Source: Escherichia phage vB_EQ1. Taken from it: a DNA stretch of 64,000 nucleotides. The stretch is from the sequence record PQ516281. One strand, 5' to 3'. Both the position numbers and the translations under genes were made by a program. The notes under the pieces were generated by a model. That model worked only from the letters and a program-made list of their open reading frames with translations. It ran no database searches and had not been told where the DNA came from. Below are positions 18,570-19,849 of this stretch, piece by piece. Each line of letters opens with the position of its first letter. Position 1 is the first letter of the stretch.

Positions 18570-19385
18570 TTAACAATTTATAGACCAAGTCCATTTAGAC
18601 GAATCTAAAGGAAAGTTTTGAATCGTCCACCATGGCTGCATATCGGTTGGTCCTGGAGTTCGCCAAGTATACGGATTCGACGGAGTGCCAATTTGATTAG
18701 GCCATGCACCTGGACTTGTTGCACCAGATTCTTTAAGCAAATCTGCCAATCGTTTTAAAAGGTCTTCACGATCTGAATCTGAATTATGCTCTGGCGGAAC
18801 CAATCGAGATTCAATATCATCCCACGTGTGTACACGTTGTGCAGTACGAGGAATGGCATCACGTTCACCACGAGCCAACCAATAAATCGGTACATTAAGA
18901 ATTTCTGCTGCATGGTCACAGTGATGAGCTAAATCGTCAACGTAACAAATCACGTTATATTTTGTTTTAGCTAGTTCAAATAATTGTTCCTTTGAAGAAT
19001 CATGACCACACATCATTACTTCAGAGAAAGCGCCTGGGAACAAAGCATTCAAATTAAATTGTCTATTCAATCGAGCATCAATTGAATCACCTAGCGCCGT
19101 CACGGCTACAAAATTATAGTCTTCTTTTAGTTTATTGATAACTCGAAGAGCATCTGAATAAGGCGCTAAGTAACGAATAAAATCAGAGCTATTATATTTT
19201 TCTATTAATTGTTTACCAAGGTTATCGTCTGTATTGAACAGTTTACCAGGAGAAATAAATTTTTCGTCCTGAATCATTTTTAAAATATGTTCTAATGGAA
19301 GATTATATTTTTGGGCAAAATAAGGAAGTCCAGATTGCCAACTTAAACATACACCATCAATATCAGTCAAAATAGTAGGCTTCAT
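18570..19385 (-). CDS. HAD-like hydrolase family protein (T4 30.2-region)
   Basis: N-terminal DIDGV motif typical of HAD phosphatases; 271 aa. Confidence 0.5.
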   Translation of the reverse strand: MKPTILTDIDGVCLSWQSGLPYFAQKYNLPLEHILKMIQDEKFISPGKLFNTDDNLGKQLIEKYNSSDFIRYLAPYSDALRVINKLKEDYNFVAVTALGDSIDARLNRQFNLNALFPGAFSEVMMCGHDSSKEQLFELAKTKYNVICYVDDLAHHCDHAAEILNVPIYWLARGERDAIPRTAQRVHTWDDIESRLVPPEHNSDSDREDLLKRLADLLKESGATSPGAWPNQIGTPSNPYTWRTPGPTDMQPWWTIQNFPLDSSKWTWSINC

Positions 19386-19849
19386 AAAGAGTCTCTTAAT
19401 AGGTTTAACACATCAATAAATTCAGCTTCAGTTAGTATTGTATCATCTTTTGTTAGGTGGCTAGCCATGCTGTGCTTCAAAATTTTTCCTTTAGAGGCTT
19501 GTAAGGCATCACGAAATCCCTTATTTTGGATCGCGGCTTCAAAATATGCATTTGTGTATAATTCTTTCCACGCTTCAGAGTATCTTGAAAATGGAACTCC
19601 TAACCAGAAGAGGGTCCCACGGTCCTGAGCTCTTGCATAAGACCTTCCAGCTTGCTGTGCAGCCAATCCAGACAACCCAAATATACGTCTTTGTTGTTCA
19701 ACATTTTTCACCTTACATCCTTGGAGAAACCCTTCAAGACCTCCGAATTGAATACCATCCATAACAAAAGGCCATTGAGCAAAGTTACTTAATGCACATG
19801 ACGGCCACTTGAAATTACTTCTTATTTCTAATTCAGACATCTTTAACAC
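19382..19849 (-). CDS. NADAR (YbiA/DUF1768)-like protein
   Basis: LSNFAQWPF…DGIQF…E…Q…K resembles the YbiA/NADAR N-terminal signature; assignment from memory. Confidence 0.4.
   Translation of the reverse strand: MLKMSELEIRSNFKWPSCALSNFAQWPFVMDGIQFGGLEGFLQGCKVKNVEQQRRIFGLSGLAAQQAGRSYARAQDRGTLFWLGVPFSRYSEAWKELYTNAYFEAAIQNKGFRDALQASKGKILKHSMASHLTKDDTILTEAEFIDVLNLLRDSL

Follow-up and report, generated by a model that had tools for sequence, protein, structure and literature searches.

An adfN gene of the T4 type and a predicted NT5C-like HAD gene, probably independent neighbours in a T4-like coliphage

The closest described relative of one of the two genes considered in this study, the NADAR gene, is gene 30.3 of bacteriophage T4, since renamed adfN, which is necessary and sufficient for resistance to DarTG1 and whose product, AdfN(T4), strips ADP-ribose from DNA modified by DarT1 (PMC11825919). 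The replacements E36A and K43A impair the protein, as does truncation of its C-terminal helix (PMC11825919), and loss of that helix in the AdfN of phage RB69 leads to reduced activity. Catalytic roles have been ascribed to the Glu and the Lys, and in this family a His replaces the Glu or Asp of other NADARs (PMC11825919, PMC11125620). In vitro the T4 NADAR hydrolyzes guanosine-linked ADP-ribose but not the thymidine-linked form (PMC11125620), and a further study counts the phage NADAR with the enzymes that remove guanine-ADP-ribose but does not list it with those acting on cytidine-ADP-ribose (PMC12945103). AdfN(T4) does not rescue uninfected cells from DarT1 toxicity and functions fully only in Tevenvirinae infection, whence the postulate of a phage cofactor (PMC11825919). 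The mechanism of AdfN is already known and was published in 2024-25.

The genetic background comes from the published T4 HIDEN-SEQ transposon data, used here in the form of the sheet 'resampling_Control_vs_DarTG1'. Insertions in 30.3 drop about 150-fold on DarTG1 hosts (log2FC -7.25, adjusted p = 0), and the only other gene to reach significance genome-wide is 30.4 (log2FC -1.79, adjusted p 0.014), insertions in which are neutral in M9. The values for alt (log2FC -0.01, p = 0.97), for 30.1 (log2FC -0.01, not significant) and for 30.2 (71 sites, log2FC -0.12, p = 0.61) show no such loss. Published T4 transposon data also mark 30.2 as non-essential in LB, where 72 of its 72 TA sites were hit, and insertions in it as neutral in M9 medium.

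The stretch of DNA analyzed, referred to below as the window, comprises 64,000 nucleotides from Escherichia phage vB_EQ1 (sequence record PQ516281), and it belongs to a T4-like coliphage. Over the 1.9-kb region around 30.2 and 30.3, identity to Escherichia phage AV110 is 99.6%, and 693 phage records match, chiefly those of Escherichia and Shigella. With that many matching records, and with large protein families behind both genes, 30.2 and 30.3 are not chance open reading frames. I will refer to the genes by their T4 names; the order alt, alt.1, 30, 30.1, 30.2, 30.3, 30.4, 30.5 is common to the window and T4. The features of the locus are as follows.

14470..16557, minus strand: alt, ADP-ribosyltransferase (Pfam PF03496 at 6e-28)
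16613..16822, minus strand: alt.1 (PF24647)
16801..18294, minus strand: gene 30, ATP-dependent DNA ligase (Pfam PF01068 at 3.2e-26)
18291..18560, minus strand: gene 30.1, DUF3045 (Pfam PF11243 at 1.1e-26)
18570..19385, minus strand: gene 30.2, an open reading frame of 271 aa that begins MKPTILTDIDGV
18801..19385, minus strand: gene 30.2 residues 1-195, predicted HAD-superfamily core with alpha-helical C1-type cap (from motifs and predicted structure)
18570..18800, minus strand: gene 30.2 residues 196-271 and stop codon, variable Trp/Pro-rich C-terminal tail
19382..19840, minus strand: gene 30.3/adfN, phage-type NADAR of 152 aa with ATG start (PF08010)
19382..19849, minus strand: longer 30.3 open reading frame, 155 aa from GTG, which contains ALSNFAQWPFVMDGIQF
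19833..20051, minus strand: homologue of gene 30.4, 72 aa (phrog_2042)
20041..20238, minus strand: homologue of gene 30.5, 65 aa, first of a tightly packed string (phrog_1690)
20263..20292, minus strand: sigma-70-like promoter match TTTACA-18-TATAAT, 11/12, just upstream of 30.5 (consensus match only)

An earlier note on this DNA had described a HAD-motif protein and a NADAR-like protein, and both reading frames are indeed on the minus strand where it put them, with the motifs DIDGV, LSNFAQWPF and DGIQF in place. Its statement that they lie two to three genes from alt was slightly off: three genes (alt.1, 30 and 30.1) separate alt from 30.2, and four separate alt from 30.3. All of alt, 30.2 and 30.3 are nevertheless contained within 5.4 kb. 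The genes are closely packed. The stop codon of 30.4 runs over the start of adfN (an 8-nt overlap), the stop of 30.3 and the start of 30.2 share the sequence ATGA, and 30.1 and 30 overlap by 4 nt. For 30.3 itself, the upstream GTG start at 19849 was rejected in favor of the ATG at 19840, which gives the T4 length of 152 aa, a gap-free alignment at 97% identity and the published numbering of E36 and K43; to judge from these features of the sequence, the ATG is almost certainly the true start. The promoter match listed above was the best sigma-70-like match found by a scan of the region for promoters and terminators; the scan as a whole was of little information and gave 33 promoter-like sites against 27.8 expected from shuffling, i.e., no excess.

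The assignment of 30.3 is direct. Its product matches Pfam PF08010 with 232 bits (cut-off 36; E = 1.9e-69) and aligns with T4 gp30.3 over all 152 residues, without gaps, at 97% identity. Residues E36, K43 and H123 are invariant across 49 aligned relatives, and all three are present in the window protein. The Pfam NADAR family PF08719 is reached through relatives only, 16 of the 49 matching it, while the window protein gave no PF08719 match at E <= 0.1 and PF08010 was the one family reported. Similarly, phmmer with 30.3 as query returned no PDB sequence at E <= 10, and a profile of the family found E. coli YbiA at E = 0.001, over the SNF...E..Q..K core. The AlphaFold2 model of the protein (pLDDT 93.4) agrees with the NADAR fold, a helical core flanked by small sheets. 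Its only significant Foldseek matches in the PDB were YbiA (2b3w, TM 0.67, E 6.6e-5) and PnNADAR (8bau, ADP-ribose-bound, probability 1.0). The Pfam match, the relatives in PF08719 and the two routes to YbiA and PnNADAR, by profile and by structure, together bear out the call of a NADAR protein.

The substitutions that separate the window protein from T4 gp30.3 number five, and none of them falls at a known catalytic position. The C-terminal helix, modelled at residues 138-151, is intact, residues 129-152 being identical to T4. Gene 30.3 is adfN, and by analogy with this 97%-identical protein, from which the function is carried over, it would encode a NADAR DNA guanine-ADP-ribose glycohydrolase active against DarTG1. 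The term counter-defence, as applied to it previously, was right, since the T4 orthologue is both a guanine-ADP-ribose glycohydrolase and an anti-DarTG1 factor (PMC11825919, PMC11125620). Since the catalytic residues are free of substitutions and the C-terminal helix does not differ from that of T4, I infer that the window phage would resist DarTG1 by the T4 mechanism. In that mechanism, as demonstrated with T4, a host DarTG1 system that has been triggered ADP-ribosylates the guanines of phage DNA by means of its DarT1 toxin, and replication is blocked; AdfN, a minimal NADAR domain, then cuts the bond between guanine and ADP-ribose, restoring the DNA and allowing the phage to escape. The presence of the NADAR gene thus explains why this phage should resist the DarTG1 abortive-infection system, which is of use in predicting host range.

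Other features of the 30.3 region deserve mention. T4 carries an out-of-frame reading frame, 30.3', inside 30.3 (window 19477..19704, minus strand), and in the window this frame has a stop at codon 35. Its disruption, set against the 97% conservation of 30.3, speaks against 30.3' being a real gene. Many of the T-even-type gp30.3 sequences in the protein database are shortened, to 83-126 aa, or have pieces of neighbouring families (PF11097, PF06919 Gp30.7, PF06019 Gp30.8) fused to them. To go by these sequences, deletion and recombination may be frequent around 30.3, and AdfN may have been lost naturally in some phages, as reported for RB69. Further upstream, between 30.5 and 30.7, the place of the 95-aa T4 gene 30.6 is taken in the window by a reading frame of 204 aa (20293..20907, minus strand; phrog_17531) that matches no Pfam family. 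Elsewhere in the window, directly downstream of cd (dCMP deaminase), a reading frame of 330 aa (24000..24992, minus strand) encodes a DAHP synthase (Pfam PF00793 at 1e-74). DAHP synthase is an enzyme of the aromatic amino-acid pathway. The T4 record has cd.1 and cd.2 at this position and no such gene.

The assignment of 30.2 is more remote. No curated HMM matched its product above threshold: HAD_2 was found at E = 0.013 with 16 bits, under the cut-off of 23.8, and TIGR01428 at E = 0.09 with 12.7 bits, under the cut-off of 125.4. The best PDB sequence match by phmmer, though weak, was to the deoxyribonucleotidase cdN (E = 0.11), and the family profile found the same protein at a non-significant E = 0.51. 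Neither NCBIfam nor PADLOC gave a usable match for 30.2 or 30.3, and PHROGs places both in families without an assigned function. All the same, the four motifs expected of a HAD enzyme (I, DxDx(T/V); II, S/T; III, K/R; IV, DD or DxxxD) are found in 30.2 as D8-I-D10-G-V, T96, K132 and D150-D151, each invariant or at least 90% conserved among 51 relatives. In the AlphaFold2 model (pLDDT 84 overall, >90 over residues 1-190), every motif sits at or just past the end of a core strand. The predicted fold is a Rossmann-like HAD core with a cap, the latter formed by a helical insert of about 55 residues (16-72) of the C1 type. Foldseek gave 109 PDB matches to this model at E <= 0.001, with cdN first and with cytosolic and mitochondrial 5'(3')-deoxyribonucleotidases among the top.

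An exhaustive profile search with 30.2 retrieved 1080 cluster representatives. Among 66 of its more remote relatives, 24 matched the Pfam family NT5C, PF06941 (best E 4.2e-10), 11 matched Hydrolase and 11 HAD_2; the window protein itself did not match PF06941. The assignment as a nucleotidase rests, then, on predicted structure and on homology through intermediate relatives, since the protein's own HMM matches are all sub-threshold. The earlier recognition of a HAD protein stands by motifs and predicted structure, the protein's own HMM matches staying below threshold (HAD_2, 16 bits against 23.8). To judge by the model, it was a correct fold call on what is a very common phage gene. In the light of the predicted structure, 30.2 appears to encode an enzyme of the HAD superfamily that bears a helical cap and is nearest to NT5C, and I have filed it as a divergent NT5C-like HAD phosphatase, predicted to be Mg-dependent. 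Its most likely activity, on the same footing, would be to hydrolyze a small phosphomonoester that resembles a nucleotide. Going by established HAD enzymology, the second Asp in motif I, together with the DD in motif IV, suggests Mg-dependent phosphoryl transfer and not dehalogenation. By analogy with HAD phosphatases, Asp8 would form an aspartyl-phosphate, Asp10 would act as general acid/base, and Asp150 and Asp151 would hold Mg2+. Whatever its substrate, the predicted phosphatase encoded by 30.2 is widely conserved, occurring in T4-like phages that infect many hosts, and its catalytic motifs are intact.

The last 75 or so residues of gp30.2 are of a different nature. They are predicted to form one helix followed by disorder, with pLDDT <50 past about residue 225. 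Identity to the T4 protein collapses beyond about residue 195, and in many relatives the tail is absent or unrelated, its length ranging from none to well over 100 residues.

The earlier note had further proposed that the two genes, through their proximity to alt, form a coordinated module of ADP-ribosylation or counter-defence. To assess this, I examined the gene neighbourhoods of relatives of each gene. Around the relatives of 30.3, on 80 viral contigs, 55 have neither 30.2 nor ligase nor alt within 6 kb, and about 17 have alt; 30.2 or alt comes within that distance only in T-even phages and in a small number of further T4-like lineages. Around the relatives of 30.2, on 78 contigs, the ligase gene adjoins downstream in 72, an alt-like match lies within 6 kb in 56, and 30.3 is nearby in 37, leaving 41 loci of 30.2 without it. 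Although 30.3 and 30.2 sit side by side in all the close T-even genomes examined, in ten T4-like contigs (162-176 kb) 30.2 and the NADAR gene are 52-64 kb apart (e.g., L028/L142, L031/L129 and L052/L102). Over these 80 and 78 loci, then, alt, 30.2 and 30.3 do not show a conserved co-localization. Ligase, rather than adfN or alt, is the stable genomic partner of 30.2, as its 72 of 78 loci against 37 for 30.3 make clear, and the proximity of alt to 30.2 follows from the fact that both flank the ligase. The NADAR gene is a sporadic insertion into a variable early region.

A further observation concerns alt. The window Alt is only about 41-46% identical (tblastn) to the Alt of T4 and its closest relatives, as compared with 96-97% for the neighbouring adfN, and yet it has a 99% match in another contig, L082. 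From this combination of sequence identities, alt would appear to be a mosaic, fast-diverging gene here.

Could the three genes still act together, the NADAR protein reversing or tuning the ADP-ribosylation written by Alt, for example, or shielding the nucleic acid of the phage from transferases that the phage itself encodes? They do lie on the same strand in a short span, Alt is by its Pfam match a genuine ART (PF03496 at 6e-28), and the 56 of 78 loci with an alt-like match near 30.2 might be taken as a sign of association, were the last not accounted for by the flanking of the ligase. Against a link stand the neutrality of T4 alt insertions on DarTG1, where those in 30.3 are lost, and the lack of alt within 6 kb of most 30.3 relatives. 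The chemistry is also at odds with it: the T4 NADAR has guanine-ADP-ribose in nucleic acid as its substrate and does not act on ADP-ribose linked to thymidine or cytidine (PMC11125620, PMC12945103), and Alt is described in the T4 record as an ADP-ribosyltransferase of protein (RNA polymerase). I consider such a module highly improbable. The postulated cofactor of AdfN (PMC11825919) raises a similar question about gp30.2, which could conceivably be the T-even-specific factor on which the full activity of AdfN(T4) depends. The inability of AdfN(T4) to counter DarT1 in uninfected cells calls for some such factor, and the ATGA overlap of 30.3 with 30.2 and their adjacency in all close T-even loci would suit this one. 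That gp30.2 plays the part is nonetheless hardly to be believed, in view of the neutral insertions in 30.2 on DarTG1 (significance being confined to 30.3 and 30.4), the ten T4-like genomes in which the two genes are far apart and the more than half of 30.2 loci without 30.3 nearby. Counter-defence in the T4 data showed no dependence on alt or 30.2 (-0.01 and -0.12, as compared to -7.25 for 30.3), and on that sheet and the comparative gene order both candidates, gp30.2 as cofactor and Alt as functional partner, were rejected. The coordinated module of the earlier note thus finds no support: its reading amounts to a sound annotation of a known system joined to an unsupported functional link. Gene 30.4, rather than 30.2, may be the missing T-even cofactor, or its depletion on DarTG1 may be a polar effect on adfN. 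Identity to T4 is only about 53% for the window 30.4, as compared to 97% for AdfN. The reading I prefer, and hold to be very probable, is that 30.2 and 30.3 are translationally overlapping, co-transcribed neighbours that are functionally independent, 30.3 being adfN and 30.2 an NT5C-like HAD gene, with the proximity of alt a matter of T-even gene order. A subtle or redundant tie between the two is conceivable, given their overlap and adjacency and a body of data that consists of a single transposon screen.

What gp30.2 does on its own account admits of more than one answer. The strong linkage of its gene to ligase lends some weight to a phosphatase of DNA ends, akin to the phosphatase domain of PNKP, that would ready nicks or ends for the adjoining enzyme. 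The helical cap over residues 16-72 of the model speaks against this. HAD caps are typical of small-molecule enzymes, and phosphatases of the PNKP type are capless. Moreover, about 200 capped small-molecule HADs outscore PNKP in the comparison with the model, the remote relatives match NT5C 24 times and HAD_PNKP once, and T4-like phages already encode PseT (T4 record), so that a DNA-end phosphatase strikes me as improbable. A conditional role may be considered instead, in which gp30.2 is not a housekeeping protein but an NT5C-like nucleotidase, kept beside ligase, that destroys a nucleotide-derived molecule made by a host defence or cleans the precursor pool, and is needed only on hosts with a particular defence. 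The gene sits in a non-essential early block that already holds one proven anti-defence gene, and its catalytic motifs are strictly conserved though it can be dispensed with in LB, in M9 and on DarTG1, a combination that implies selection under other conditions. On the other side, PADLOC and the PHROG families with assigned functions returned no match, the DarTG1 and M9 sheets of T4 revealed no conditional phenotype, and a search of the literature found no mention of gp30.2 (30.2 combined with haloacid dehalogenase gave nothing relevant). I regard this role, too, as rather unlikely, whether put in terms of defence or of pool sanitation. If true, it would give the enzyme a target such as a modified or ADP-ribosylated mononucleotide or the precursor of an immune signal, and it would explain why the motifs are conserved in a gene that is dispensable under the three conditions.

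The two genes may finally be set beside the systems they most resemble. The 30.3 locus of the window shares with that of T4 adfN the catalytic E36 and K43, the family-specific H123, the C-terminal helix and the flanking genes 30.4 and 30.2, and its protein differs from that of T4 by K11R, E89P, I120V, M125I and H128G (window residue, position, T4 residue). DarG1, the NADAR antitoxin of DarTG1 (BC4488-type), shares the fold and also removes the guanine-ADP-ribose mark left by DarT1 (PMC11825919, PMC11543638), but AdfN occurs as an orphan that is not paired with a DarT, does not have the N-terminal extension seen in DarG1, and carries His at the position of an Asp in DarG1. The top structural matches to the 30.3 model, E. 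coli YbiA and Phytophthora PnNADAR (2b3w and 8bau), have the SNF...E..Q..K core in common with it but are just 16-18% identical, and in the YbiA type Glu takes the place of the phage family's His123. As for 30.2, the nearest known enzymes are those of the NT5C family, the 5'(3')-deoxyribonucleotidases cdN and mdN (PF06941; 2jao, 2i7d, 1mh9), with which it has in common the motif I DxDGV followed by a helical cap and the full set of four HAD motifs.
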